Source: an uncultured Mycoplasmatota bacterium
GTDB lineage: Bacteria > Bacillota_I > Bacilli_A > RF39 > UBA660
Length of the DNA stretch: 64,000 nt
Assembly: GCA_900553395.1 (NCBI GenBank)
Contig: USDJ01000008.1
Span: forward strand, 2,689 to 66,688
Direction: 5' to 3'
Shown here: positions 5,615 through 17,442 of the stretch, in pieces
Layout: each line of letters begins with the position of its first letter
How positions within the stretch are numbered: position 1 is the first letter of the stretch
Made by a program: the position numbers and the translations under genes
Notes under the pieces: model-generated
What the model was told of the DNA's origin: nothing
What the model saw: the letters and a program-made list of their open reading frames with translations, nothing else
The model's database searches: none

Positions 5615-6106
5615 GTGAATAAAAAAACTAAAATTATACTATCAATAACTATAATCATTTCTTTATTACTACTAATTTATTCTATTGTAAATATAGTTAT
5701 TTGGAAAAACGATTCTAATAAAACTAATAAACAAATTGAAGATATACAAGAAGAAATTAAAGTTACTGAAGTAGTTGATACAGAAAATACAGAAATAATA
5801 GAACCAGAAGAAGAAATACCAAAATCTAATCCATATTGGGATTATATAAAAATGAATATGATAGATATTAACTTTAATGAATTAAAAAGCATCAATAATG
5901 ATGTTAAAGATTGGATTAAAGTAAATGGTACTAATATAAATTATCCTTTCGTGCAATCTAACAATAATAAATATTATTTAACACATAGTTTTGATAAATC
6001 TTATAATTCAGCTGGTTGGTTATTTCTATATTATAGAAATAATATAAATAATAATAAAATTCTAAATCATCATATAACTCTATTACCTTGGCATCTTTGT
6101 TGGTAG
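5615..6106 (+). pseudogene. Class B sortase gene, truncated at about the catalytic-His region
   Basis: TM anchor, then WIKVNGTNINYPFVQSNNNKYYLTHSFDKSYNSAGWLFLYYRN, which matches the SrtB N-terminal half. Similarity is lost at ...KILNHH, and the TLxTC Cys and the Arg are absent. Confidence 0.6.
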
Positions 6107-6301
6107 TTAATTTTTTATAATTACTAGTGTTAATATCATAAGAACGATTGTTTATTTTTCTACTATTCTTTACATGATTTGAAGTATAGTTCAAACATCC
6201 TTTTGGCTGCTCCAAATTAAGCTCTGGGTGGTATATATTACCATCATAGGCAAAATCATTGGTAGTATAGACTTCCATAATATCTAATGACTTAATACCA
6301 T

Positions 6302-6521
6302 TTAAGGGGTAATTAAAGAACTTAAAAATGTTCTTGTAGTAACACCAAGATTACAAGAATTCTCTACTACTTCAAGATATGTTTCTGCTCCGTGTCCCCC
6401 GTGCTTCCAACAGTGAAGAGTCGCTCCTCCTACTGTCACAGCGCCACTATCAAAATAAGTATCATTATTTAAATCAACTATTTTTTCTTCTAGTGAAGCG
6501 GCTAAAGTTATTATTTTGAAA
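6302..6521 (-). pseudogene. PBP transpeptidase-domain fragment (continuation of 12274..13151 after the SxxK serine), itself truncated after ~73 codons
   Basis: Minus-strand translation is (T)FKIITLAASLEEKIVDLNNDTYFDSGAVTVGGATLHCWKHGGHGAETYLEVVENSCNLG.... This matches the region following STFK in SpoVD/FtsI-type PBPs. The frame then ends at the TAA at 6302-6304. Confidence 0.7.
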
Positions 6522-6534
6522 GTAACCCCCGAAA
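6516..6534. other. Left att junction (PBP 3' flank / element arm)
   Basis: + strand TTATTTTGAAAGTAACCCCCGAAAACG (6511-6537). Confidence 0.7.
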
Positions 6535-6552
6535 ACGATAACTAAACAAAAT

Positions 6553-6595
6553 AAAAAAAGACTAGATTACCATATAAATATATGATAGCCTAGTC
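6553..6595 (-). terminator. Rho-independent terminator after the recombinase gene
   Basis: Minus strand: GACTAG...CATATA-TT-TATATG...CTAGTC hairpin followed by TTTTTTT. It overlaps the TAG stop. Confidence 0.55.
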
Positions 6596-8320
6596 AATGT
6601 CGTAACTTAAATATACATTAATTTTAAAACTATTTCTTTGAAAATCAGATCTTCCTAGATCTAATGTTTCAATATCTTTACTAAATATAGGTAGTGATTT
6701 ATCATCATCTATGTGCCTAGCACCTTTTCCAGTAGGAATTGGTTTTTTCAATAAATTCAGATAAATTTTTAGCATTAATTTATGTCTATCATTGTCCTCC
6801 TTATAGACTATAATTTTCTCCAAAAACTTATCTACAAATTCACTAACATTATTTTTATAATCAACTTGCTTTTTAATAGCATCTTCAATAATATTGATAT
6901 TACCAAAACTATCAGACATAATCTTTCTTTCTTGTTCTATTTTTCCAATTCTTATATTTAAAGATGATATATCTTCATTATATTTATCATTTCTTTCTTT
7001 AAATTCTAGGTTATTAATACTACCATCAATATTCAATTCTAATAACTTTTCTTTTTTTGTTTCAATAGTTTTGATTTCATTTTTTAATTTTGAAATTTCA
7101 AATTGATAATTGTTATCTATTTTTAAATTAGAATAATAATCTAACATTTCTTTTATAATTTCATTTTTATTATTAAATACTTGTTCCATAATAATTACAA
7201 AAATATTATTCAAGTCCATTTCTGCAATTATTGGACTTTCACAAGCATCTAGTCTATATTTTACATAATTACCACAAGCCCATCTAGGCTTCGTTTGTTT
7301 TCTTTTACTTGACATTCTCTGGTAAGAAACATTATGTTCACTACAAAATATTTTTGTAGTATAACAATATTTTCTTTCGGCTCTTTTGGCATTACCATTA
7401 CTTGCTTTCATTAGTGTACTTCTGCTATCTAATATCTCGTTTGCACGATTCCATAATTCTTCACTAACTATGGCTGGTATTGATTCATCTTTATATATTA
7501 CTTGTTCTTCTATTGGTATATAAACTCTTTGTTTAGTTCTATAATCAATAATTTCAGTAGTATGTCCACGATAAAAACCTTTATATTTAGGATTCTGTAT
7601 AATTCTCTTTAATGTATCCTTATCATAAATATTTCCTTTATAATTATTTATACCTTGCCTGTGTAATTCCATTGCTAATTTATAAAAACCATATTTACCA
7701 GTAGCATATAATTCAAAAATTTTTCTTATTTTTTTGGCTTCTTCTTCTACAATCACTAATTTAGCATCATCTTTTTTATAACCAGTAATTATATTAGAAC
7801 CTAAAACTCTACCTTTTTTTATTGCTTCTTTGTGTCCCCATTTAACACGAGAAGAAAGTCTTTTGACTTCTTCTTGAGCAACACTTCCCATCATATTAAG
7901 TATAAATTCAGAGTTAGGATCATAAGTATTTATTCCATTTGATTGAAAATATACACCAACATCATTAGCAAGTAATTCTTGTGTATATTTGATACTATCA
8001 GATAAATTTCTAGAAAATCTAGAAACTTCTTTTGTAACTATTAAATCAAAATAGCCAGATTTAGCATCATCAATCATTTGTAAAAATTTTTTTCTTCGTT
8101 TAACAGTGCTACCACTAATGCCTTCATCTATGTAACCATTAATATAAGTCCAATTTCTATTTGACTTTATAAAGTTTTCAAAAAAAGATATTTGGTTATC
8201 TAAAGAGTTCAATTGTTCATCGCTTTCAGTAGAGACACGAGCATAAAAAGTAACTCTTAAAGGCAGATCGGCAATGTTTTTGCCTTTTAAGATTTCTTCT
8301 CTGACTTTATAGAATCTCAT
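6590..8320 (-). CDS. Large serine recombinase (integrase)
   Basis: N-terminal resolvase catalytic domain (VTFYARVSTESDEQLNSLDNQ), recombinase domain, Cys-containing zinc-ribbon-like segment (CSEHN...WACGNY...C) and a long C-terminal coiled coil. GGAGGTAGATT RBS. Confidence 0.9.
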   Translation of the reverse strand: MRFYKVREEILKGKNIADLPLRVTFYARVSTESDEQLNSLDNQISFFENFIKSNRNWTYINGYIDEGISGSTVKRRKKFLQMIDDAKSGYFDLIVTKEVSRFSRNLSDSIKYTQELLANDVGVYFQSNGINTYDPNSEFILNMMGSVAQEEVKRLSSRVKWGHKEAIKKGRVLGSNIITGYKKDDAKLVIVEEEAKKIRKIFELYATGKYGFYKLAMELHRQGINNYKGNIYDKDTLKRIIQNPKYKGFYRGHTTEIIDYRTKQRVYIPIEEQVIYKDESIPAIVSEELWNRANEILDSRSTLMKASNGNAKRAERKYCYTTKIFCSEHNVSYQRMSSKRKQTKPRWACGNYVKYRLDACESPIIAEMDLNNIFVIIMEQVFNNKNEIIKEMLDYYSNLKIDNNYQFEISKLKNEIKTIETKKEKLLELNIDGSINNLEFKERNDKYNEDISSLNIRIGKIEQERKIMSDSFGNINIIEDAIKKQVDYKNNVSEFVDKFLEKIIVYKEDNDRHKLMLKIYLNLLKKPIPTGKGARHIDDDKSLPIFSKDIETLDLGRSDFQRNSFKINVYLSYDID

Positions 8321-8331
8321 AATCTACCTCC

Positions 8332-8490
8332 TTAGCATTTTTTTACCTCTTTACTATAATGATTGATTTTCTCATGAATAATTTTACAAACTTCTTCATA
8401 TTGTTGTTTAGTAATGATACCTTTATCATATATTTTTTTGTTAATTATTAATTCATATTCGAGGACAACTATTCTTGGAGTTTCAAACAT
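8332..8490 (-). CDS. Small 52-aa protein co-transcribed with the recombinase (candidate accessory/directionality factor)
   Basis: Not in the ORF track. GGAGGTG RBS 8 nt before the ATG. Product: MFETPRIVVLEYELIINKKIYDKGIITKQQYEEVCKIIHEKINHYSKEVKKC. Its stop lies 11 nt before the recombinase ATG. Confidence 0.55.
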   Translation of the reverse strand: MFETPRIVVLEYELIINKKIYDKGIITKQQYEEVCKIIHEKINHYSKEVKKC

Positions 8491-8575
8491 ATAAAAACAC
8501 CTCCACTAATGGAAGTGTATGGTTTCTAGATAAGTTTGATTACTAATTGTATTTTATTTGACATTTTTTCCATAT

Positions 8576-8962
8576 TTAAAAATATGTTTCTCTTAATTTC
8601 TTCGACATTTCTTCATCATCAACTGAATGTATTGAATGATTCCCTAATTTGCAAAAATCTCTTACTTCTTGTTTAATTTCTCTTACTTTATTTTCTGTTG
8701 AAAAAACATAAAAAAATTTTACAAAATCGATTTTACTATCAAAGCAAGAATTCATCTTATATTTTATTCCTTCCCAATCATTACTGGCATTGCCTATCCA
8801 TGATTCTCCTTGATATAAAGTATATATTAATTTAAATTTTTCTTGTTTATCTAATTTCGTTTGTTTTTCATCAATAATAATTAAATTATCTTTTATTATA
8901 TTTTCTATAAAACTCCAATTATTAAAACTAACCGGAAATAAAACTAACATATAATGTTGCAT
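8576..8962 (-). CDS. Cargo gene 5: hypothetical protein, possibly nucleoside-diphosphate-kinase-like fold
   Basis: By-eye colinearity with NDK: YMLVLFP ~ TLVLIKP, and GNHSIHSVDDEEMSKKLRETYF ~ GRNVIHGSDSVESAEREIALFF (His retained). This is weak evidence. Confidence 0.3.
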   Translation of the reverse strand: MQHYMLVLFPVSFNNWSFIENIIKDNLIIIDEKQTKLDKQEKFKLIYTLYQGESWIGNASNDWEGIKYKMNSCFDSKIDFVKFFYVFSTENKVREIKQEVRDFCKLGNHSIHSVDDEEMSKKLRETYF

Positions 8963-8968
8963 ATTTTA

Positions 8969-9487
8969 CTATCGTATAACCTCAATTATTTCAGCAGGTG
9001 AGATGTTTTCAATTTCAGTAACTGATTGAATTGCCATTTGATGGAAAACAAAAATAATACATTCATAATTATTATATTTCTCGATTATATCTTGAACTCT
9101 TTTTTTCAAATGTTCTTTTGATTCCCAGTTCACTACCCTATCAACTGGTGGAACACCACTGTTCTTAATATAATCTTTATAATATTCTTTCATTTCTTTA
9201 GCTTTATATTGATATGTTTTATCAGGCTCCCACTCTCTCAAATCAGGTTCTATTTTTATATCTAGGCCTGTTTCTTTTGATATAATTGCTGCTGTTTGCA
9301 ATGCTCTAGTATATGGTGAAGACACGATGAGTGATGCTTCTTTCAAGCGTGGATCTTTAGATGTCTTTATTACATCATCAATATATTCATCACTTAATTT
9401 AGCTAAATCATGTCCGTGCCCAATAAAATTATGGGCATCACCATAACTATAATCTGCTTTACCGTGTCTTATCATAAAAATCTTCAT
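8969..9487 (-). CDS. Cargo gene 4: histidine phosphatase (phosphoglycerate-mutase superfamily)
   Basis: RHG motif (FMIRHGKADY), SSPYTRALQTA and a second His (VFHQM). Confidence 0.8.
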   Translation of the reverse strand: MKIFMIRHGKADYSYGDAHNFIGHGHDLAKLSDEYIDDVIKTSKDPRLKEASLIVSSPYTRALQTAAIISKETGLDIKIEPDLREWEPDKTYQYKAKEMKEYYKDYIKNSGVPPVDRVVNWESKEHLKKRVQDIIEKYNNYECIIFVFHQMAIQSVTEIENISPAEIIEVIR

Positions 9488-9491
9488 ATAT

Positions 9492-10085
9492 TCATCTCCT
9501 TAATTTTAATGACTTGCATATACATTCACTGGCGTATGCTTTACTTTTTCCAGTTGTGTCAATAAATTCCTTCCTTGACCATATTTCCATTATATCATAA
9601 AATTCGTTTTGATAAAATTCAAAATCATTTTTGACCCAATTATTTTGTAAAATTTTGTCTCTATTTAAATTCCTTTTTAGTTTTTCACTTGAATCTGCTG
9701 TTAAAATAAATGTTATATCTGGGTTAACATACCATGCTTGATTTATCATATCTTTATATATTCTAAGCGCATTATCATAACCATTGTATTTACCTAATTT
9801 TAAGAAGGCGTATGAAACCGCTAAAATTGAAAGATAACTTCTTTCCATAAATACTATTTTGTTTCGTTTCAATAATGATGATGCTAATATCATCCTCTCT
9901 TTTTCTATTTCAAGAAAAATTTGTTGATTTTTTAATTCTTCTTCTATATTCTTTGATGGTTTAGGTGATAATGGATGATCCATAAATTCCTCAATTATTT
10001 CGACATTTGGAATTTCACTCAAAATTCTTGATGTAGTTGTCTTGCCGGAATTAGACGCTCCTTCTATTACATATAAATTTTTCAT
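9492..10085 (-). CDS. Cargo gene 3: P-loop kinase, deoxynucleoside/nucleotide-kinase-like
   Basis: Walker A GASNSGKTT, an ERS motif (FMERSYLS) and an Arg/Lys-rich lid-like segment (EKLKRNLNRDK). Confidence 0.55.
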   Translation of the reverse strand: MKNLYVIEGASNSGKTTTSRILSEIPNVEIIEEFMDHPLSPKPSKNIEEELKNQQIFLEIEKERMILASSLLKRNKIVFMERSYLSILAVSYAFLKLGKYNGYDNALRIYKDMINQAWYVNPDITFILTADSSEKLKRNLNRDKILQNNWVKNDFEFYQNEFYDIMEIWSRKEFIDTTGKSKAYASECICKSLKLRR

Positions 10086-10094
10086 TATATATCA

Positions 10095-11390
10095 CTACCT
10101 TTCTGTTTTATATTTCTTCATTTTAAAATTGAATATGGAATATAAAGGACCCATATTAGATATAAATGTAGAGACACAAACAGCACATATCAGACTTAAC
10201 TTATTGTTAATTTTTTTGTTTTCCAGTTTTTCTATAAGTTTTATTGTACTTAGATAAACACATATTTGCATAAATATATAAGAAAATATTGATATTACAA
10301 GCAAAATAATATTTCTATAATATATACCAATTGCAAACGGCAAAATAATAATAATTGACCACAATAGCCAACTTAAATTCATACGAACTCTTTGAAAAAG
10401 CCAGTTTTTACATGAATTGGAAATTTTTTTATCTTTTTTTAGGTTACTTTTTATCATCTTAACCCATTGATTAGAAGTTCTAAACCAGTTAGCATTTTGC
10501 TTGATTAATACTGATATATTTTTGGGCGTTTCCATGTTTTCTAGTTTTAAAACAGGAGTAATCTTAATATTTCTATTTCTAATAATTGAGCTCATGTATA
10601 TATCTTCACACCAAAATTTATTATTAAATCCTTCGATTTTTCTTAGTATGTCCAATCTGATATACAATCCATGTCCAACAACATAAGTGTATAATAAATT
10701 TGGAAAAGTTAAGGAGTTTATCAAGCCATATTTTATTTCAAAATTACTTTGGTAAAGTGCAAATCCCTTCATGATAAATGAAAGATTTTCTAAATTGCTA
10801 AACGCATAAGAGTACTGCTGTATTATTTCTGGGTAATCTTGATTTTTAATTATATTCAAAACACTATTTATCGTGTCTAAATTTGGTCTACTGTCTGCAT
10901 TATATACAGAAAAATATATTTTTTTACTATTGTTATAATTTTTGTATTCTTTCATTACGTAATTTAGCTGATCCGCCATTATTCCGTCTTTATATGGATA
11001 ATGTAAAAGTTTGACTTTATTTATCTTATTTTCGTTGATATATTCATTTACCACATCAAATGTTGTCTTGTTTATTTCTTGCTTGGTCAAAAGCTGTTCG
11101 TATTTTTCTTTTTCTGTTGTCACAATAATTAATTCTATATTATCTTTATCGTTTATTAAATTCAAAAAATAATCTATTGTTTCTTTTATAACAGATTGCT
11201 CTCGCAGACAAGGAATGATAATTAGTATTTTACAATCTGAAAGCCTATTATTATTATTTTTATATACTCTTATACTTTTAATTTTTCTTTTAGCTATACA
11301 AGTTTTTAACATATTCCAAAATGCATTTATGATTTCTAAAGCTACTATTATCCAATAAATTATTAATAATATACCTTTCATAAATTCCAC
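10095..11390 (-). CDS. Cargo gene 2: membrane-embedded family-2 glycosyltransferase (synthase-like)
   Basis: N-terminal TM, GT-A core (LIIIPCLREQ..., VYNADSRP), KQNANW resembling QxxRW and several C-terminal TM helices. Confidence 0.7.
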   Translation of the reverse strand: MEFMKGILLIIYWIIVALEIINAFWNMLKTCIAKRKIKSIRVYKNNNNRLSDCKILIIIPCLREQSVIKETIDYFLNLINDKDNIELIIVTTEKEKYEQLLTKQEINKTTFDVVNEYINENKINKVKLLHYPYKDGIMADQLNYVMKEYKNYNNSKKIYFSVYNADSRPNLDTINSVLNIIKNQDYPEIIQQYSYAFSNLENLSFIMKGFALYQSNFEIKYGLINSLTFPNLLYTYVVGHGLYIRLDILRKIEGFNNKFWCEDIYMSSIIRNRNIKITPVLKLENMETPKNISVLIKQNANWFRTSNQWVKMIKSNLKKDKKISNSCKNWLFQRVRMNLSWLLWSIIIILPFAIGIYYRNIILLVISIFSYIFMQICVYLSTIKLIEKLENKKINNKLSLICAVCVSTFISNMGPLYSIFNFKMKKYKTER

Positions 11391-12031
11391 CCCTTCCCTT
11401 TTGCTAAATTATCAATCGTCTCACAATAACTATCAAGCATTCCACGACTAATGAAAAATTCTTTATCATATTTAGCATCTAGTAAGTCAAAAACTAAAAA
11501 TTGAACTTTAATTTTGAGATATAAACAAATAGCTAGTCGATGTGCACCATCGATCGGAATTCCTGTTTTACTTATAGGTATTATAGTCTTGCTTAAGCCT
11601 TCTGCTTTTATAGATTCAATTAATATGTTAAAATTGTCAATAAAATTATCTGGACTAGATTTACTTCCATCAGGTTCAAAAAAATTATTAAAGGCTTTAA
11701 TATGCGATAAATATATTTTTTTAGCCAAGTCATAGTCTTTCTTTTCAATATAACTTTTTACATAAAAATATTTCACATAGATATCATATCTATAACGAGA
11801 TGTCAATTTTTCGGGACTACATTCATACATGTAATATTGTTTTCTTTTTTCTAGCAATGAATATATATAGTGATTATTAATAAGTTTGTTCGCATCATTT
11901 TCATCTATAATCTTAATTAGCTTACTATTTTTTATAGGACTCATATTAATATTGGTGATAACTATATTGGAACTATTATAAAATTTATCAAATATTATTT
12001 TTCCCATATTAGGTATTTCTTTGGTCCTCAT
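11378..12031 (-). CDS. Cargo gene 1: hypothetical protein with ParB/sulfiredoxin-like DGxHR motif
   Basis: IPIDGAHRLAICLYL resembles the DGxHR box of ParB/Srx-fold proteins. It overlaps the GT2 gene by 13 nt. Confidence 0.35.
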   Translation of the reverse strand: MRTKEIPNMGKIIFDKFYNSSNIVITNINMSPIKNSKLIKIIDENDANKLINNHYIYSLLEKRKQYYMYECSPEKLTSRYRYDIYVKYFYVKSYIEKKDYDLAKKIYLSHIKAFNNFFEPDGSKSSPDNFIDNFNILIESIKAEGLSKTIIPISKTGIPIDGAHRLAICLYLKIKVQFLVFDLLDAKYDKEFFISRGMLDSYCETIDNLAKGKGWNL

Positions 12032-12092
12032 ACTATTATCACATCCAATATAAATATTTAATCAAGATAATTTAAAGTGTTTATCGAGAAGT

Positions 12093-12121
12093 AGTATACA
12101 GTTTATATATAATTTTGTCAA
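12093..12121 (-). promoter_or_regulatory. Sigma-A-type promoter inside the element, driving the cargo operon
   Basis: Minus strand TTGACA-17 nt-TATACT (TTGACAAAATTATATATAAACTGTATACT), about 60 nt upstream of the first cargo ATG. Confidence 0.6.
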
Positions 12122-12253
12122 CCTGTATTTACCTAATTAAATAAAAGATGGAAATCTGCTTTTAAAGCTGTCAAAGACTTATATAGTTATAAGCTTTGAA
12201 TTAAATTCAATAAATATGCATAATTAAAAAAAATCAGCATACTAATATATTGC

Positions 12254-12279
12254 TTTCGGGTGTTACAATATTAAAAGTA
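12254..12279. other. Right att junction (element arm / PBP 5' flank)
   Basis: + strand GCTTTCGGGTGTTACAATATTAAAAGTAGAACC (12252-12284). Confidence 0.7.
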
Positions 12280-13151
12280 GAACCTGGTTCATATGTCATC
12301 CAAATTGGAAGATTTCTATTTATTTGCTCTACAGTATAATTTTTATAATTACTAGGGCTAAAATCTGGACGTGATGATATAGCGAGTATTTCTCCACTAT
12401 TCGGATCCATTACTATACCTAGTGCTTGATCTGGATTATATTGACTAATAGCATTATCAAGTTCCCTTTCTAGTGCCTTTTGCAAATCAAAGTTTATAGT
12501 AAGCGTCATATTAACCCCACTTTGTGGTTGTTCATATACCTGTGACATAGAAAGACTATTACCTTTAGCATCACTAAAATATTTTATAGCCCCATCACTA
12601 CCAGTTAAATATTTATCATATATTAATTCCAGACCACTTAAACCCTGATTATCTATTCCAACAAATCCAATAGTATGTGATAATAAATTATCATAAGGAT
12701 AATTCCTTTTTGCCTCTTTTACTAAATACACACCTTTTAATCCTAAAGAGTTTATCTTATCGGCTATATCATAGCTTAAGTTTCTTCCTTCGGGATGAAC
12801 TCTTTCTATCGAAGTTTTCTTTGATACGTGCGAATACATATTTTCATAACTAACATTAAGTATTTCAGAAAGCTTACTTGCAGTTAAACTCTTATCTTCT
12901 ATCTGATTTGGTATTAAGATAAGTGAAGTCGTAGTAATATTACCAGCTAGTTCTACTCCGTTTCTATCATATATTATTCCTCTATTAGCAGCAAGCGGTA
13001 AATTTCTGCTCCATAAACTTGTAGCATACTTATTTAATTTTTTGTAATCTATTACTTGAATATAAAAAACCTTAAAAATTATTAAAAAAAATAAAAATAG
13101 TGTTGCAAATATTATAATTTTAATCCTTACGTGTATACTTTTAAAAAACAT
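12274..13151 (-). pseudogene. Class B penicillin-binding protein (SpoVD/FtsI-like), 5' part up to the SxxK motif
   Basis: TM anchor and PBP dimerisation domain, then ...IWMTYEPGSTF. After that the ORF reads into element DNA (NIVTPESNILVC*, stop at 12234). The ATG at 13151 has a GGTGAT RBS. Confidence 0.8.
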
Positions 13152-13216
13152 TTTATCACCACTTAAATTTATGAATAAAAACATATATTAATTCAAAAAT
13201 TATAAATAGTAGTAAT

Positions 13217-13245
13217 TTGACATTTAAACTTAATTGATATATAAT
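13217..13245 (+). promoter_or_regulatory. Near-consensus sigma-A promoter
   Basis: TTGACA-17 nt-TATAAT (TTGACATTTAAACTTAATTGATATATAAT). Confidence 0.65.
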
Positions 13246-13271
13246 CTATCTCGAAGTAAGAAGGTGTATTG

Positions 13272-13595
13272 ATGAAAAAAAATAAAATTAATTTATTTCA
13301 AGTAAGTATTTCAAATAAATCAAATTCATTTATTTTCTCTCTACCACATTCTAATGATGATCTTACCTATGACTATTTTGTGTTATCTGAAGGTGATGAA
13401 ATAATTGTTGAAAAGATTACTAATGTATTAAATTTTCTACAAGATGGCCATATAACACTTGTACCAATCGAATTTGGAACTGACGAATTTTTAAAATTTC
13501 AAGAATTATATGAAAAATATTGTGACAAGCACAATAAAGCAAATAAATTAAAGGTAAATATTAAAAGCGAAAAAAATAATCCTCATTTTAACTAA
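13272..13595 (+). CDS. Hypothetical protein
   Basis: AAGGTG RBS 5 nt before the ATG at 13272. Followed by a clean terminator. No motif recognised. Confidence 0.55.
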   Translation: MKKNKINLFQVSISNKSNSFIFSLPHSNDDLTYDYFVLSEGDEIIVEKITNVLNFLQDGHITLVPIEFGTDEFLKFQELYEKYCDKHNKANKLKVNIKSEKNNPHFN

Positions 13596-13609
13596 ATGAG
13601 GATTTTTTG
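13578..13609 (+). terminator. Rho-independent terminator
   Basis: AATCCTCATTT-loop-AAATGAGGATT followed by TTTTT. Confidence 0.7.
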
Positions 13610-13646
13610 TATTACTATATAAAATTAAAATAAAAACATTATTTTA

Positions 13647-15359
13647 TTATAAACTTGTCTTCTTAACTTCTACATTTTCTAAACTAGCGATTTTATCATT
13701 TAATCTTTTACTAATAATCATAAGTTTTGATCTTGCAGAAACAATATTTAAAATATCAACCGGTTTAAATTCATTTTTCTTCAAATCATAAAGGAAGAAA
13801 TACTCTGAATCTTTTTCTTTACCTATAATATTAAATAATATAAAATAACTGCCATCTTCCCTACTCTTTAAAGGATAATATTGTATTCTGTTTAAAGCAG
13901 GGCTATATTGTATATCGTATTTTTCAAATTGGCAATTATTAAAATTTAATTCCCGAAACATATCTGAAATAAGCTCGCTAATTATAGCAGACTGTTCACT
14001 ATAGCCTAATTTATTAAAACTAGTTGGCCCTTCATTGCAATCTAGTATCCTAGAAAACATAGTACTAAACTTTAAAGCAATATATCTATTTGAAACATAC
14101 TTATCATCATTAAATATTCTATCCGGATCAATAAAATGAAACATTATTTTATGAAGTAAAATGGAAAAATTATTTTTTTCAAATCTTCTTTCCTTTACCA
14201 ATGTCACAATTGAATTTACCTTGCTTAGCAAAGCAAGAGGATTATAAAATTCATCTAAAGGCTCATTAGGTAGCACCTTTTTAGATTTTTTATACCAAAC
14301 CTGAAATGGATTATCATCTGAATTAATTAAAACCTCCCTAGAACTGATTGGATATTCTAAGTATTTTGATGCAAAATATTGCTTTATAATATTAGATACA
14401 TCATTAAGCCATCCTTCATAATCGTAAATAGGATCTTTTACATTAGAATCTAGTTTAAAACCGGTCATTCTTAAAATCTTAGATAATATGATATTACAAA
14501 GTCTTCTCATCCATATATTAAAATCATCATCACTTATAGAAGAAAAACTGTCTTCATTTAAATTAATTAATCTACCATTAGTTCCAACAAACTCGACAAG
14601 TGTATTATATATTATGGTATTTTCTTCAGCAATTAAATAATACCAATCATTTTTTCTTAAATATTGTTTAATTATCGCAAATGAAACATCGTTATACTGA
14701 AGTGCATATTCTCTTATTGGATTACCAAGAGATTCATATTTATAGTATGAATTTAAATATCCCAAATAGTTATCAATCTCTCTTATTTTGCTTTCGGATA
14801 AAAGAGTATGATTAATGGCTTCGCCTTCGTAAGTTGGAACAGCATTTCCATTTTTATCTTTTCTATATTGTGGAATATTAAGTGCGAAATGTCTAGTCTT
14901 AAACCCATTTTGTATATAAGGTAAATCTGCTGCCAAATTCAAAAAATATGTATTTTTCTGATCTTTTACAGCTAGAAACCAATGATGCATTAAAAACGAA
15001 TCGTCTTTAAACTCATTTTTTTCAGTATCTGGAATCTCAAAATATTTACTAGTTTTAACAAGATACGACTCTATGCCAAGTTTGTCATAGCACATTTTTA
15101 AAATCAAAGCAGCCGATCTACAAATTACAGCATTCCAATCATCTTTTGTTTCTGTTTTGTCATCTTCATATATTTCTTTTAAATCTTTTACACTCATACC
15201 CTCTATTTCAGGTTTATTGAATATACCCCAGAAAAATTCTACATATTTTTTTAAACGTTTTCCGAGTGAAAGATATACATATCTAATTTTAAGAATCGTA
15301 GGCCACTCATCATTTACATTCGAAACTACCTCGTTTACTAACTCTTCTATACTGTTCAT
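13647..15359 (-). CDS. Large cytoplasmic protein with N-terminal transglutaminase-like cysteine-peptidase core
   Basis: Cys context WNAVICRSAALILKMCYDKLGIESYLV, then His context FLMHHWFLAV, then Asp (LNLAADL). The ~400-aa C-terminal part is unassigned. Confidence 0.45.
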   Translation of the reverse strand: MNSIEELVNEVVSNVNDEWPTILKIRYVYLSLGKRLKKYVEFFWGIFNKPEIEGMSVKDLKEIYEDDKTETKDDWNAVICRSAALILKMCYDKLGIESYLVKTSKYFEIPDTEKNEFKDDSFLMHHWFLAVKDQKNTYFLNLAADLPYIQNGFKTRHFALNIPQYRKDKNGNAVPTYEGEAINHTLLSESKIREIDNYLGYLNSYYKYESLGNPIREYALQYNDVSFAIIKQYLRKNDWYYLIAEENTIIYNTLVEFVGTNGRLINLNEDSFSSISDDDFNIWMRRLCNIILSKILRMTGFKLDSNVKDPIYDYEGWLNDVSNIIKQYFASKYLEYPISSREVLINSDDNPFQVWYKKSKKVLPNEPLDEFYNPLALLSKVNSIVTLVKERRFEKNNFSILLHKIMFHFIDPDRIFNDDKYVSNRYIALKFSTMFSRILDCNEGPTSFNKLGYSEQSAIISELISDMFRELNFNNCQFEKYDIQYSPALNRIQYYPLKSREDGSYFILFNIIGKEKDSEYFFLYDLKKNEFKPVDILNIVSARSKLMIISKRLNDKIASLENVEVKKTSL

Positions 15360-15408
15360 AATAAACACCCAGTATTAATTTTATCATACATTACGCTTTT
15401 TATAAATA

Positions 15409-17442
15409 CTATCTTTTCTTTTTTAATATTCTCAAAGTATTTAGTATTGTTAAAAGTGTAACTCCAACATCAGCAAATACAGCTTGCCACATATTTGAAA
15501 TACCTAGAGCACTTAAAACTAATACTAAAATTTTTAATGATATAGCAAATATCAAGTTTTCTCTAATAATTTTATTTGTATATCTTGATATATCAATAGC
15601 AGTATTTATTTTAGATAAATCATCTGTCATTATTACTACATCTGAAGCCTCTATAGCAGCGTCTGTTCCAATTCCACCCATAGATATACCTATATGAGCT
15701 AAAGCAAGAGTTGGAGCATCATTTATTCCATCGCCTACAAAGGCAACTATATTATTATCTATATACTCTTTAACACAAGTATATTTATCACTTGGTAACA
15801 TTTCGTATTTTACTTCTTTTATGCCAACTTCTTTTGCTACCTTTATTGCATTATTTTTACTATCACCAGTAAACATTTCACATATAATATTTTTGTTTTG
15901 TAATTCTTTTATTGCAGGCTTCGCATTATCTTTAATCCTATCTACTATATTTACTGAAGCAACTACTAAGCCATCTATAGAAATATATGCTACTGCACCT
16001 ATATCTTCACATTTACATAGTTTATAATTGCCTATTAATATATTTTCTTTTCCTATAGAAAATGATATTCCACTACCTTTTATTTCTTTAAAGTTTTTAA
16101 CATCACTACTATCAGTTTTTATATTTATAGCATCTGTAATACTCTTGGCAAGAGGATGATTAGATAGTGATTCTCCTTTTTTTAATATAGTTTCTATTTC
16201 TTTTTTACTATACTTTTCATTAATAATCTTTATATCTATATTTTCAAATTTACCTGTAGTAATTGTCCCTGTTTTATCAAATATAATTCTATTTATATTT
16301 TTTAAATTATCTAAATAATTACTTCCCTTTATCAAAATTCCACATTTTGATGATAAACCAATGCCAGCAAAATAACTGAGTGGTACTGAAATAGCTATGG
16401 CACAAGGACAGGAAATAACTAAAAATACTAACGATTTATATATCCAAGTATTTAATGGTTGACTAGTAAAAATAGCTCCATACAAACTCAAAAGTATAGC
16501 TAATAAAAATACACTTGGAGTATAAATTTTAGATAGTTTTGATACAGTAGTTTCTGTTTTAGCTTTATTATCAGTAGCATTTAAAGTAAGTTCTAAAATT
16601 TTATTTACAGTACTATCTTCATATATAGTATTTACTTTTACAGTAATAAGGCCATTTTCATTAATCATTCCAGAGGTTACAGAATCTCCTTCTTTTACAG
16701 GTTTAAGTATGCTTTCACCCGTTATAGCACTAGTATTTAATTTAGCAGTTCCATCTAATATAACTCCATCTAGAGGTACTTTTTCTCCTGTTTTAACTAT
16801 AATTATATCTCCTACTTTTACCTCTTCTGGTGATACTACAATTATTTTATCATCTACTTTTTTATTGGCAAAAGAAGATTTTATATTCATTAAATCAGAA
16901 ATAGACTTTCTAGAATTATTTATTGCTATACCTTCTAGTATTTTACCTATTTCATATAAAACAATAACCATAAGTCCTTCACTTTGTTTATCTATCAAAT
17001 ATGCTCCAATACAAGATATTGTAATTAAAAAATTTTCATTTAAACTCTTTTCTTGTATCAGCATTCTAATAGCCTTCAGTGCTGTTTTATGCAAAAGTAT
17101 AATATAACCTATAATTATTAGAACATTTTTAACTATATTATTAGTTTTTAAAAATAGTCCTAACAATCCAATAATGGTACCAATTAAAAGTATTAATACT
17201 CTTTTTTTCACATTTTCAGTCTTTACATTTTTATCATATATAGTAGTTTCTGGTTCTATTTTTTTTACAATTTTATTTACATACTTCAAAACATCATTCG
17301 ATAAATCAGTTTCGATTGTAAGTTTAAGACTTGAAAAATTAACTATAGCTTTATCTATATTCTTATCTTTATTTAAAGCATCCTCTATCTTTTTAGCACA
17401 ATTAGCGCAATCTAGAGAACTAATATTAAATTTATATCTCAT
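15409..17442 (-). CDS. cadA: Heavy-metal (Cd/Zn/Co-type) P1B-ATPase
   Basis: N-terminal HMA CxxC (CANCAKK), CPC (SCPCAIAIS), DKTGTIT and GDGINDAP. Confidence 0.85.
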   Translation of the reverse strand: MRYKFNISSLDCANCAKKIEDALNKDKNIDKAIVNFSSLKLTIETDLSNDVLKYVNKIVKKIEPETTIYDKNVKTENVKKRVLILLIGTIIGLLGLFLKTNNIVKNVLIIIGYIILLHKTALKAIRMLIQEKSLNENFLITISCIGAYLIDKQSEGLMVIVLYEIGKILEGIAINNSRKSISDLMNIKSSFANKKVDDKIIVVSPEEVKVGDIIIVKTGEKVPLDGVILDGTAKLNTSAITGESILKPVKEGDSVTSGMINENGLITVKVNTIYEDSTVNKILELTLNATDNKAKTETTVSKLSKIYTPSVFLLAILLSLYGAIFTSQPLNTWIYKSLVFLVISCPCAIAISVPLSYFAGIGLSSKCGILIKGSNYLDNLKNINRIIFDKTGTITTGKFENIDIKIINEKYSKKEIETILKKGESLSNHPLAKSITDAINIKTDSSDVKNFKEIKGSGISFSIGKENILIGNYKLCKCEDIGAVAYISIDGLVVASVNIVDRIKDNAKPAIKELQNKNIICEMFTGDSKNNAIKVAKEVGIKEVKYEMLPSDKYTCVKEYIDNNIVAFVGDGINDAPTLALAHIGISMGGIGTDAAIEASDVVIMTDDLSKINTAIDISRYTNKIIRENLIFAISLKILVLVLSALGISNMWQAVFADVGVTLLTILNTLRILKKKR

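Follow-up and report, generated by a model that had tools for sequence, protein, structure and literature searches.

A large serine recombinase (LSR) element of 5.7 kb that interrupts the sporulation gene spoVD carries five genes of its own, and the question raised by this locus is what function such a cargo serves. The locus lies in a window of 64,000 nucleotides, by which we mean the whole stretch of DNA analysed. A first-pass annotation, made from the sequence, could assign the gene set to no described pathway; profile searches likewise gave no known pathway, and the system is not named by any match in Pfam, NCBIfam, PADLOC, PDB sequences or the literature. The best explanation at present, to which we assign a probability of roughly 0.45, is a mobile cassette that makes or modifies a cell-envelope glycan.

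Organization of the cargo operon

The cargo consists of five co-directional, tightly packed open reading frames on the minus strand, spanning 8576-12031: p1 (11378..12031, 217 aa), p2 (10095..11390, 431 aa), p3 (9492..10085, 197 aa), p4 (8969..9487, 172 aa) and p5 (8576..8962, 128 aa). The homologues of p5 begin at its Met5, and the protein is therefore probably 124 aa long, starting at 8950. As annotated earlier, the genes are packed or overlapping, with a 13-nt overlap between p1 and p2 and intergenic gaps of 9, 4 and 6 nt between the others. Since dN/dS is 0.10-0.23 for p1 to p5, each compared with the related elements L010 and L011, these are real genes under purifying selection, not chance ORFs in AT-rich DNA.

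The near-consensus sigma-70-type promoter described upstream, TTGACA-17-TATACT (12093..12121, minus strand), was recovered as the single top-scoring promoter candidate of the region, with 11 of 12 positions matched, while promoter-like matches in total are no commoner than in shuffled sequence (54 versus 48 +/- 7). Its hexamers and 17-nt spacing are identical in all four related elements (L009-L012) despite variable upstream spacer DNA, which argues that it is functional and drives the operon. A terminator-like hairpin 3' of p5 (8497..8518, minus strand), with a 9-bp stem containing four G-C pairs and a T-rich tail, closes the operon at its other end. The genes form one unit from promoter to terminator, in agreement with the proposal that they are cargo of a mobile element.

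Carrier element and its insertion in spoVD

The recombinase of the carrier (6590..8320, minus strand, 576 aa) matches Resolvase (1.8e-33), Recombinase (9e-19) and Zn_ribbon_recom, and is 91-97% identical to those of L009-L012. Just upstream of it, a 52-aa ORF with weak SHOCT matches (8332..8490, minus strand), kept in the same four elements at 75-79% identity, might possibly encode a recombination directionality factor. At the left junction attL (12252..12279, minus strand), the spoVD frame ...GSTF enters the element, where the core TACTTT is followed by the inner repeat GTAACACCCGAAAGC; at the right junction attR (6519..6545, minus strand), the inner repeat TTTCGGGGGTTAC and the core TACTTT precede the restart of spoVD as FKIIT.... 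When the two flanks are joined, they give G-S-T-F-K-I-I-T, the SxxK active-site motif of spoVD.

The N-terminal half of the split spoVD-like PBP gene (12280..13184, minus strand; TIGR02214 spoVD_pbp, 6e-77) is host DNA and not cargo. Of the C-terminal half, a 59-codon remnant (6344..6518, minus strand) is left, and other spoVD 3' sequence is absent from the window; this deletion means that the gene is not restorable by excision. The same spoVD insertion is present in four other species.

Predicted products of p2, p3 and p4

Two of the earlier assignments are firm. The RHG histidine phosphatase, p4, belongs to branch 1: it matches PF00300 (His_Phos_1) at 4e-18 and phrog_12933 at 7e-23, and its catalytic residues R7-H8-G9, R61, E85 and H149 are invariant among homologues. 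The protein p3, described as a deoxynucleoside- or nucleotide-type kinase with a P-loop and an Arg-rich lid, is firmly a P-loop kinase at the level of the thymidylate-kinase/deoxynucleoside-kinase superfamily. It matches PF02223 at 5.6e-8 (33.1 bits against a cut-off of 27), and in its family the P-loop and the lid residues R138, N139 and R142 are invariant and R82 nearly so. Its score against TIGR00041 is 37 bits, far under the cut-off of 83, and its match to PDB 3ld9, a TMK, has a value of 1e-3.

The reading of p2 as a GT2 with terminal transmembrane helices and a QxxRW-like motif stands in part. Kyte-Doolittle hydropathy places one transmembrane segment at the N-terminus and about three at the C-terminus, and D166, E262-D263 and Q298-N299-x-x-W302 are invariant in 19 homologues, but QxxRW lacks conservation at its R. 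Matches of p2 to PF13632 (2.3e-4) and PF13641 (0.019) both fall under the cut-off, some family members have precomputed matches to these two models, and a PDB sequence search with p2 gave no match. These features are weakly suggestive of a divergent membrane GT2-like glycosyltransferase.

p1 and p5 as two parts of one fused superfamily

No match to p1 was obtained in Pfam, NCBIfam or a PDB sequence search. Foldseek searches of PDB and BFVD with its AF2 model (pLDDT 90.7) gave top matches that are almost all ParB-N or Srx, at weak E-values of 0.009-0.03 and with an alignable core of ~50-100 residues, about a quarter to half of the protein; these local cores superpose at an rmsd of 1.3-1.9 A with 28-34% identity. 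The DGAHR box noticed in the first-pass annotation holds up well, as D161-G162-x-H164-R165 is invariant in 26 homologues, while the ParB/sulfiredoxin-like core assigned with it may be present, on the model's weak similarities. The same kind of search was clearer for p5 (AF2 model, pLDDT 81.8): all 46 PDB matches with E<=1e-3 are nucleoside diphosphate kinases (NDKs; TM 0.50-0.64), which confirms at the level of the predicted fold a likeness first seen by eye. H112 of p5 is invariant across relatives and D115 nearly so, and the spacing of its G-x4-H-x2-D equals that of the NDK active-site segment.

A profile search with p1 uncovered an unannotated superfamily of at least 1,648 clusters, most members of which are three-domain fusions (e.g., L038). 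HMMs built on the fused proteins match p1 with domain 1 (2e-50) and p5 with domain 2 (2e-27), and among the best 149 representatives of the superfamily, domains 1 and 2 share one chain in 109, with domain 3 too in 94. Judged by domain fusion, p1 and p5 are evidently separate-gene forms of the first two domains of a single enzyme that is widespread as a fusion; domain 3 is absent from the window cassette.

Superfamily members frequently have an FkbM methyltransferase or a glycosyltransferase joined to them: among 44 representatives scanned, FkbM also occurs in 13, GT2 in 10, GT10 in four and RfbT in three. The fusions occur across bacteria, in loci for O-antigen, exopolysaccharide, cell-wall polysaccharide and flagellin glycans. 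Their neighbourhoods include wzm-wzt(Wzt_C)-methyltransferase-GT clusters, Bac_transf/LytR_cpsA_psr cell-wall polysaccharide clusters, a heptose/GT/FkbM cluster, a flagellin-glycosylation island and, in Ilyobacter and Paracoccus, clusters annotated as exopolysaccharide loci. The fused protein of L050 is encoded downstream of wzm, wzt(Wzt_C) and a gene for a TylF-type methyltransferase. Because p1 and p5 appear as halves of an enzyme from glycan loci, the glycan option is favoured over the DNA-modification option, which had also been considered.

Distribution and variants of the cassette

A neighbourhood search for the five families showed that a core of p1, membrane GT, kinase and a phosphatase, arranged in any of three orders, recurs in ~30 species of gut Clostridia, whereas all five genes occur together in only two lineages. 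In 29 Clostridial-type loci of a species-dereplicated set, the GT is present in 25 and the kinase in 24, the exceptions being contig ends or deletion variants. The core usually adjoins an LSR (also in L013-15, L020, L022, L023 and L033), at insertion sites that differ, such as spoVD in the window and L009-12 and the AhpC gene in L041/42; among the recombinases are several unrelated lineages that share 21-27% identity with the LSR of the window.

A phosphatase is retained even where its family changes: some loci have His_Phos_1, others PHP. The swapped accessory genes are all nucleotide/nucleoside enzymes: a Vut_1/YhhQ-type transporter, a nucleoside 2-deoxyribosyltransferase, an HD-like protein, PHP and the NDK-like p5. 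In class C loci, the transporter, deoxyribosyltransferase, kinase and PHP phosphatase are translationally coupled with p1 in one operon, while the transporter is missing from classes A and B. In the L001-4 variant, an adjoining gene encodes a class I SAM methyltransferase that matches RrnaAD, and the class C kinase matches chloramphenicol phosphotransferase weakly (0.0086). The cassette was not found in phage and IMG/VR collections, which argues against a prophage origin and is neutral on defence.

Functional interpretation

In an envelope-glycan cassette, p2 would act as a membrane-embedded GT2-type transferase by which a sugar polymer or glycolipid is built or extended at the membrane. The chemistry of p1 and p5 we purely infer: p1, with predicted NTP binding, and p5, with its conserved histidine, may act jointly as one NTP-dependent phosphotransfer enzyme via a phospho-histidine, and might phosphorylate a sugar or glycan or activate it with a nucleotide. 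The TMK-like kinase p3 and the phosphatase p4 could then process a phosphorylated precursor or recycle a nucleotide by-product. Kinase-then-phosphatase logic is known in ADP-heptose synthesis, and a dedicated phosphatase in PRPP-dependent ribofuranosylation. The operon would be expressed from its own vegetative-type promoter, and the payoff for the host, and hence for the element, would likely be an altered cell surface, as for seroconversion cassettes on mobile elements.

This reading is supported by the fusion of p1 with p5 and its glycan-locus contexts, and by the GT2-family matches, transmembrane segments and invariant D/ED/Q..W of p2. Further support comes from gene linkage in three orders, the constant phosphatase role, the invariant catalytic residues of p3, p4 and the p5 histidine, and the low dN/dS. 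Against it stand the sub-threshold Pfam scores and unconserved R of p2, the missing domain 3, and the lack among the cassette genes of a sugar-nucleotide synthesis gene, flippase, polymerase or exporter. If the reading is right, the cassette most likely represents envelope-glycan chemistry of a kind not described before.

A simple glycan model also does not predict that all variable accessory genes are nucleotide/nucleoside enzymes, and this feature favours the main rival, a nucleotide-centred conflict system against phages or mobile elements, which we consider unlikely but the most serious alternative. Here the kinase, phosphatase, NDK-like protein and other nucleotide enzymes would deplete a nucleotide pool, change it or generate a modified nucleotide, p1 would sense or bind NTP, and the membrane GT would serve as effector or anchor. 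The association with unrelated LSR lineages at different sites fits such a system, and the kinases weakly match the PADLOC models VakA (6e-6) and PDC-M51B (2.5e-4); however, these matches look like generic P-loop similarity, and PADLOC gave none for the other components. Moreover, the cassette contains no recognisable effector (nuclease, TIR domain, pore), its neighbourhoods are not evident defence islands, and glycan contexts are where its invariant partners, p1 and the GT, belong.

A salvage and interconversion module for nucleosides or nucleobases, aiding small-genome gut Clostridia reliant on imported precursors, is still less probable. The class C operon, which joins transporter, deoxyribosyltransferase, kinase, phosphatase and p1, and one host chromosome of only 1.57 Mb (L033) are in keeping with it, but the transporter is confined to that class, a kinase with a phosphatase would make a futile cycle, and salvage has no use for an invariant p1 and membrane GT, the former from a superfamily residing in glycan loci. 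Least likely is an antibiotic- or bacteriocin-resistance operon that phosphorylates or glycosylates, and thereby inactivates, a nucleoside-type or cell-wall-active compound, or that remodels the target of this compound in the envelope: small LSR elements of Clostridia such as Tn4451/Tn4453 classically bear resistance genes, and the L001-4 methyltransferase and the chloramphenicol phosphotransferase match point the same way, but none of p1 to p5 matches an NCBIfam resistance-gene family, and a resistance determinant would not typically be an operon of several enzymes, four or five of them with invariant catalytic residues.

Comparison with known systems

The carrier resembles the gene-intervening elements of sporulation genes, namely skin in sigK, SPbeta in spsM and gin in gerE (PMC4191935, PMC5595907, PMC5025042). 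Like these, it interrupts a sporulation gene at a precise site, here the SxxK codons of spoVD, and has a small upstream ORF as candidate directionality factor and an insertion shared by four other species. Unlike them, it sits in a gene that has lost its 3' part, and the cargo core also rides other LSRs at non-sporulation sites. The resemblance concerns the carrier and not the cargo.

At the protein level, p5 shares a predicted fold with many NDK structures, and a local hhalign alignment, the only one to do so, puts its conserved-histidine segment on GRNIIHGSD of human NME2. It differs from NDK (PF00334) in having no Pfam NDK match, 8-18% sequence identity and no evident counterpart (LFP) of the lysine in the IKPD strand; a housekeeping role as NDP kinase is unlikely for p5, because most relatives have this domain as part of a fusion with a ParB/Srx-like one, encoded in glycan loci. 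The ParB/sulfiredoxin superfamily includes ParB CTPases, sulfiredoxin, ParB-like nucleases and the archaeal serine kinase SerK. With it p1 shares an invariant strand-loop-DGxHR-helix element, whereas p1 has no Pfam ParBc match and no HTH or DNA-binding module, and its genomic context is glycan biosynthesis, not partitioning.

Surface-glycan cassettes on mobile elements are known, such as the seroconversion genes gtrABC of Shigella and Salmonella prophages and the prophage-encoded TarP of S. aureus. The window likewise holds a small GT-containing operon as cargo of an integrative element, for which vegetative expression and a cell-surface change would be expected. In contrast to these systems, it rides on a minimal LSR element instead of a prophage, it has no GtrA flippase or GT-C partner, its GT is divergent with transmembrane segments at both ends, and it adds kinase, phosphatase, NDK-like and ParB/Srx-like proteins that the known cassettes lack. 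WbdD-type O-antigen chain terminators (E. coli O9a) combine a kinase with a methyltransferase; their partners are Wzm/Wzt and the binding module at the C-terminus of Wzt. The window cassette has neither methyltransferase nor ABC transporter, and there is no sequence or fold kinship to the WbdD protein-kinase-like domain, so that any likeness would be functional. However, the fused proteins with all three domains are often joined to or adjoin methyltransferases (FkbM, RfbT, TylF), and these links match a possible role as an NTP-using modifier of the glycan end.

Operon structure and selection

The five cargo genes, p1 to p5, lie on the minus strand of low-GC Firmicute DNA (about 27% G+C) and encode a ParB/Srx-like protein (p1, 11378-12031), a membrane GT2-like glycosyltransferase, GT (p2, 10095-11390), a TMK/dNK-like kinase (p3, 9492-10085), a histidine phosphatase (p4, 8969-9487) and an NDK-like protein (p5, 8576-8962). 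An ORF scan recovered all five within 8576-12031, at the coordinates given in the first-pass annotation, and the tight packing described there was seen again, with a 13 nt overlap between p1 and p2 and spacings of 9, 4 and 6 nt between the remaining genes. The promoter assigned to the operon, TTGACA-17-TATACT (12121..12093), is the top match in the region (11/12), where promoter-like matches are in total at chance level; identical hexamers and spacing are conserved in four related elements from other species (L009-L012), in which the DNA between junction and promoter varies in length and sequence, and the promoter is therefore taken to be functional. As a hairpin with a T-rich tail (8518..8497) is found 3' of p5, the five genes form a single promoter-to-terminator unit. 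No riboswitch or leader RNA was found, as an Rfam scan of the whole element gave no family match. The cargo operon is real and under selection, with dN/dS of 0.10-0.23 for each of the five genes compared with L010 and L011.

Carrier element and insertion site

The operon is mobile-element cargo, and the sole cargo of an element of 5.7 kb. Downstream of it lies the large serine recombinase (LSR, 576 aa, 6590..8320), immediately preceded by a 52-aa SHOCT-like ORF (8332-8490). This small ORF is kept in all four related elements (75-79% identity); it is a candidate recombination directionality factor. The host gene encodes a spoVD-type PBP (TIGR02214, 6e-77), whose upstream half stops with E-P-G-S-T-F at about 12273 and which resumes with F-K-I-I-T at about 6520; these ends place the split at the SxxK active-site motif. 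The joined flanks read GSTFKIIT and restore an in-frame spoVD ORF across the junctions, as expected of an intervening element. TACTTT is common to both junctions, which are flanked by imperfect inverted repeats (GTAACACCCGAAAGC and TTTCGGGGGTTAC) and are conserved in L009-L012. The PBP gene (6344-6545 and 12252-13184) is broken exactly at the SxxK (STFK) codons, as it is in the four other species. No description of an intervening element in spoVD was found in the literature searched.

In the four related elements, identity to the window is 79-93% for the cargo proteins and 91-97% for the LSR, and only 56-65% for the interrupted spoVD. Because the element is much more conserved than its host gene, and because the cassette core adjoins unrelated recombinases elsewhere, comparison of these sequences suggests that the spoVD element has spread horizontally. 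A prophage origin was rejected, since no p1 homologue was found in GenBank phages (tblastn) and the cassette was absent from the IMG/VR scan. In L009, the C-terminal spoVD half is intact after the LSR (SxN, KTG and PASTA) and is followed by mraY; in the window, just 59 codons of this half are left, ending at about 6344, and excision could therefore not restore spoVD in this genome. Beside the remnant, an ORF on the other strand (5615-6106) appears by eye to be a truncated sortase-type gene, without Pfam support, and the stretch 5615-6344 looks like a secondary deletion or rearrangement. As a minimal LSR element whose junctions, at the active-site codons of spoVD, are well defined, the carrier could serve as a recombinase/att-site pair.

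Predicted proteins of the cassette

The kinase and phosphatase assignments made from motifs were borne out by profiles. The p3 protein is a P-loop kinase of the TMK/dNK superfamily (PF02223, 33.1 bits, with the cut-off at 27), with an invariant P-loop and R138/N139/R142 and a nearly invariant R82; it falls far below the dTMP-kinase equivalog TIGR00041 (37.4 bits against a cut-off of 83) and, judged from sequence, is not a dTMP kinase orthologue. The p4 protein is a histidine phosphatase of branch 1 (PF00300, 4e-18, 66 bits against a cut-off of 21.7), in which the catalytic set R7-H8-G9, R61, E85 and H149 is invariant.

For p2, the GT2-like reading holds in its flanking TM helices and acidic residues, but the Pfam matches are sub-threshold (PF13632, 21.5 bits with a cut-off of 27, 2.3e-4; PF13641, 15.4) and the arginine of QxxRW is missing. 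Hydropathy places TM segments at 6-24, 339-357, 361-379 and 398-416, one N-terminal and about three C-terminal, while D166 (NADS) and E262-D263 (WCEDI) show no variation across 19 sequences, their DxD-type/ED assignment being made by eye. Throughout the family Q298-N299-x-x-W302 (KQNANW) is invariant; as the arginine is absent, processivity of p2 cannot be claimed. Several family members carry precomputed PF13632/PF13641 matches, and the name given to one member is 'glycosyltransferase family 2 protein'. Profile searches gave no match to the GT family among PDB sequences, and the homologue search with the GT profile recovered the close family alone, with no link to any characterised synthase.

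The p1 protein has no match in Pfam, NCBIfam or PHROGs, and PDB sequence and profile searches were empty. In its AF2 model, which is confident (pLDDT 90.7), the DGxHR motif follows the strand 151-154 and opens the helix 163-172, which is the strand-helix junction expected of ParB/Srx, and D161-G162-x-H164-R165 (IDGAHR) is invariant in p1 homologues. Foldseek gave best E values of 0.027 (PDB) and 0.009 (BFVD, viral structures) with probabilities of 0.85-1.0; almost all of the top matches were ParB-N or sulfiredoxin domains, aligned over a core of just 50-100 residues. With the motif in place but neither a Pfam match nor an E value below 0.009, p1 is described as having a weakly supported ParB/Srx-like core.

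The NDK-like reading of p5 was retained for the fold and not for the family. On the AF2 model (pLDDT 81.8), all 46 PDB matches at E<=1e-3 in Foldseek were NDKs (TM 0.50-0.64, probability 1.00), pointing to the ferredoxin-like NDK fold, but no PF00334/NDK match was obtained in Pfam or NCBIfam at E<=0.1, and PHROGs and PDB sequences gave none. H112 does not vary among homologues, D115 is almost invariant, and the spacing G107-x4-H112-x2-D115 is that of the NDK active-site segment (N-x-x-H-G-S-D). The only hhalign alignment set GNHSIHSVD of p5 on GRNIIHGSD, the active-site segment of NME2; its E value of 0.44 is not significant. A housekeeping TMK or NDK was rejected, as scores stayed below the equivalog or family thresholds.

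Conservation and variation of the cassette in gut Clostridia

Among GTDB contigs, with one genome per species, p1 homologues were found at 30 loci, all in uncultured MAGs, labelled mostly Clostridia, Clostridium or Lachnospiraceae and in several cases Bacilli; one of the 30 homologues is a fused protein, from a MAG with the label Gammaproteobacteria. The cassette genes do co-occur elsewhere, with the GT in 25 and the kinase in 24 of 29 Clostridial-type loci; apart from two deletion variants, L019 and L036, the loci lacking either gene are at contig ends. Three architectures were recognised. Class A is p1-GT-kinase-HisPhos-p5 (window, L009-12 and L005-8), and class B is p1-GT (475 aa)-split kinase-HisPhos or PHP-349-aa HD-like protein. 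Class C (13 loci) is p1-Vut_1 (YhhQ family)-nucleoside 2-deoxyribosyltransferase-kinase-PHP, translationally coupled, with a convergent GT. From these architectures, the core consists of p1, the GT, the kinase and a phosphatase, whose family switches between loci while its role is kept. The membrane GT2-like protein, the nucleotide-type kinase and the phosphatase are obligate companions, and the variable genes are in every case nucleotide or nucleoside enzymes.

An LSR or LSR remnant adjoins the cassette in most loci with long flanks; these LSRs are just 21-27% identical to that of the window, and their insertion sites differ. At L041/42 (8207-16273), the same core accompanies a different LSR (524 aa) inside an AhpC-type peroxiredoxin gene, of which fragments of 58 aa upstream and 199 aa downstream are present, making this a second gene-splitting element. 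In the second class A lineage, L005 has a 247-aa C-terminal LSR remnant ahead of p1 and, after p5 (11442-12691), two paralogous cysteine-rich proteins of 188 and 208 aa that are 37% identical and have no family matches. In L001-L004 (10850-12688), a class I SAM methyltransferase, with a weak match to rRNA-adenine-dimethylase (RrnaAD), and an IS110-family transposase come after the cassette.

In every class B locus, the kinase lies in two overlapping ORFs with the same breakpoint, a P-loop half of about 113 aa and a lid half of 95-113 aa: L001-L004, L013, L014, L017, L018, L020, L021, L037 and L039-L042 (e.g., L003 10152-10777). The second ORF has its own ATG, which overlaps the stop as ATGA in L003 and precedes it by 20 nt in L039, and an A-run just past the break varies in length among loci; the break may reflect a gene split in two, a frameshift that was inherited, or recoding. 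A SAMHD1/dGTPase identity of the class B 349-aa protein was not relied on, given a sub-threshold HD match (1.2e-3) and a motif read by eye, and the PDB sequence/profile search with this protein was empty. The class C operon (L015 7986-12572 and 12 others) links p1, the transporter, the deoxyribosyltransferase, the kinase and PHP. Transporters of the Vut_1/YhhQ family are known for 7-deazaguanine precursors. This gene set hints at the handling of an unusual base or nucleoside, which a glycan model does not explain.

The p1/p5 superfamily

An exhaustive p1 profile search returned 1,648 representative clusters at E<=1e-3 (946 at E<=1e-10), so that the superfamily numbers 1,648 clusters or more when clustered at 50% identity. 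Most matches are proteins of about 470-500 aa, which were divided into three domains with one HMM built per domain. The domain 1 HMM matches window p1 (2e-50) and the domain 2 HMM window p5 (2e-27), while domain 3, with a G-S...D-L-D signature that is nucleotidyltransferase-like by eye, has no counterpart in the window and gave empty PDB sequence/profile searches. Among the best 149 representatives, all three domains occur in 94 and domains 1 and 2 in 15, and a further 38, many of them fragments, contain only domain 1; L038 is a direct case of the fused protein. Because domains 1 and 2 are fused in relatives, the classic domain-fusion argument identifies p1 and p5 as partners, one enzyme split over the first and last genes of the operon.

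The p1/p5 superfamily belongs to glycan loci. Extra domains in 44 scanned representatives were FkbM (13/44), GT2 (10/44), GT10 (4/44) and RfbT (3/44), and the neighbourhoods of the fused family were glycan loci in every case examined. They include a flagellin-glycosylation island, with the fused protein between fliS/fliT/Maf and a series of GTs; a heptose-type cluster with GHMP kinase, SIS, NTP-transferase, HAD and FkbM; cell-wall polysaccharide clusters with Bac_transf/LytR_cpsA_psr; a GT61/GT10 cluster; and annotated exopolysaccharide clusters of Ilyobacter polytropus and Paracoccus alcaliphilus, in which the fused protein is 'hypothetical' in RefSeq. As well, L050 (222-5943) reads wzm-wzt (with the Wzt_C glycan-binding module)-TylF-type methyltransferase-fused three-domain protein-FkbM-GT. 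The fused homologue there sits where the chain-terminating enzyme is expected in an ABC-transporter-dependent O-antigen locus.

No relative of the superfamily was found in Pfam, NCBIfam or PDB sequences, and its three-domain part is nameless in the sources searched. Ten members of the broader superfamily had no NCBIfam match; one of their clusters is named 'hypothetical protein', one 'FkbM family methyltransferase', and eight are nameless. It is conceivable, though doubtful, that p1/p5 represent a new, widespread superfamily responsible for a new NTP-dependent modification of bacterial surface glycans, e.g., their phosphorylation or nucleotidylation. Its members would combine a ParB/Srx-like domain that binds NTP with an NDK-fold domain bearing a phospho-histidine and, in most cases, a third domain. 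If so, the clostridial cassette would be an autonomous mobile form, equipped with nucleotide-handling enzymes of its own, and would install a new surface polymer or modification that affects recognition by phage or by the host in the human gut; a p1/p5-type pair acting as glycan phosphotransferase or activator would be new carbohydrate chemistry. The family is large, nameless and spread across phyla in O-antigen, exopolysaccharide, cell-wall polysaccharide and flagellin-glycan loci, and the window holds a compact version, with two domains as separate genes, that reveals which domains and which partners cooperate.

Possible function of the cassette

The first-pass annotation had not recognised the gene set as any described pathway, and searches of Pfam, NCBIfam, PADLOC and PHROGs likewise matched it to no pathway, defence system or determinant of resistance described so far; a literature search on the domain combination and on YhhQ with deoxyribosyltransferase found no description of this system. 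The leading reading, at a probability of roughly 45%, is that the cassette serves to make or decorate a glycan of the cell envelope. Under this reading, p1 and p5 might form an NTP-dependent phosphotransfer or activation unit acting via the conserved histidine, p3 and p4 might process a phosphorylated precursor or recycle a nucleotide by-product, and an altered cell surface might be the benefit to the host. The reading leaves unexplained that all of the swappable accessory genes are nucleotide enzymes and that the cassette holds no gene for sugar-nucleotide synthesis or export.

Mobility and accessory nucleotide genes would fit a nucleotide-centred defence or conflict system, the main rival, which is nevertheless rather improbable. 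In PADLOC-DB 2.0, the kinase alone matches weakly (VakA, PDC-M51B), one class C p1 matches at chance level (AbiJ), p1 and p5 of the window are matchless, and the components do not fit the models of any single defence system. Beyond these weak kinase matches PADLOC gives nothing, no effector is visible, and a defence role leaves both the glycan context of p1 and the invariant membrane GT unaccounted for. A role in DNA modification or partition was rejected, as p1 carries no module for binding DNA, glycan loci are where its relatives occur, fused to GTs and methyltransferases, and the GT sits in the membrane. Salvage is improbable to a greater degree, and antibiotic resistance very unlikely. The probability left over goes to something outside the readings considered.

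Uncultured Clostridia of the human gut commonly carry the cassette. As it apparently spreads horizontally, it is a candidate factor behind variation of the cell surface, susceptibility to phage or recognition by the immune system.

Comparison with known systems

By kind, the window operon is filed with cell-surface-modifying mobile cargo. Seroconversion cassettes on mobile elements follow the same logic as the window cassette with unrelated parts. WbdD-type chain terminators combine a kinase with a methyltransferase, and the fused family recalls WbdD in its frequent methyltransferase pairing and wzm/wzt adjacency, a possible analogy of function only. For the carrier, set against skin, SPbeta and gin, the closest kind is that of the intervening elements.
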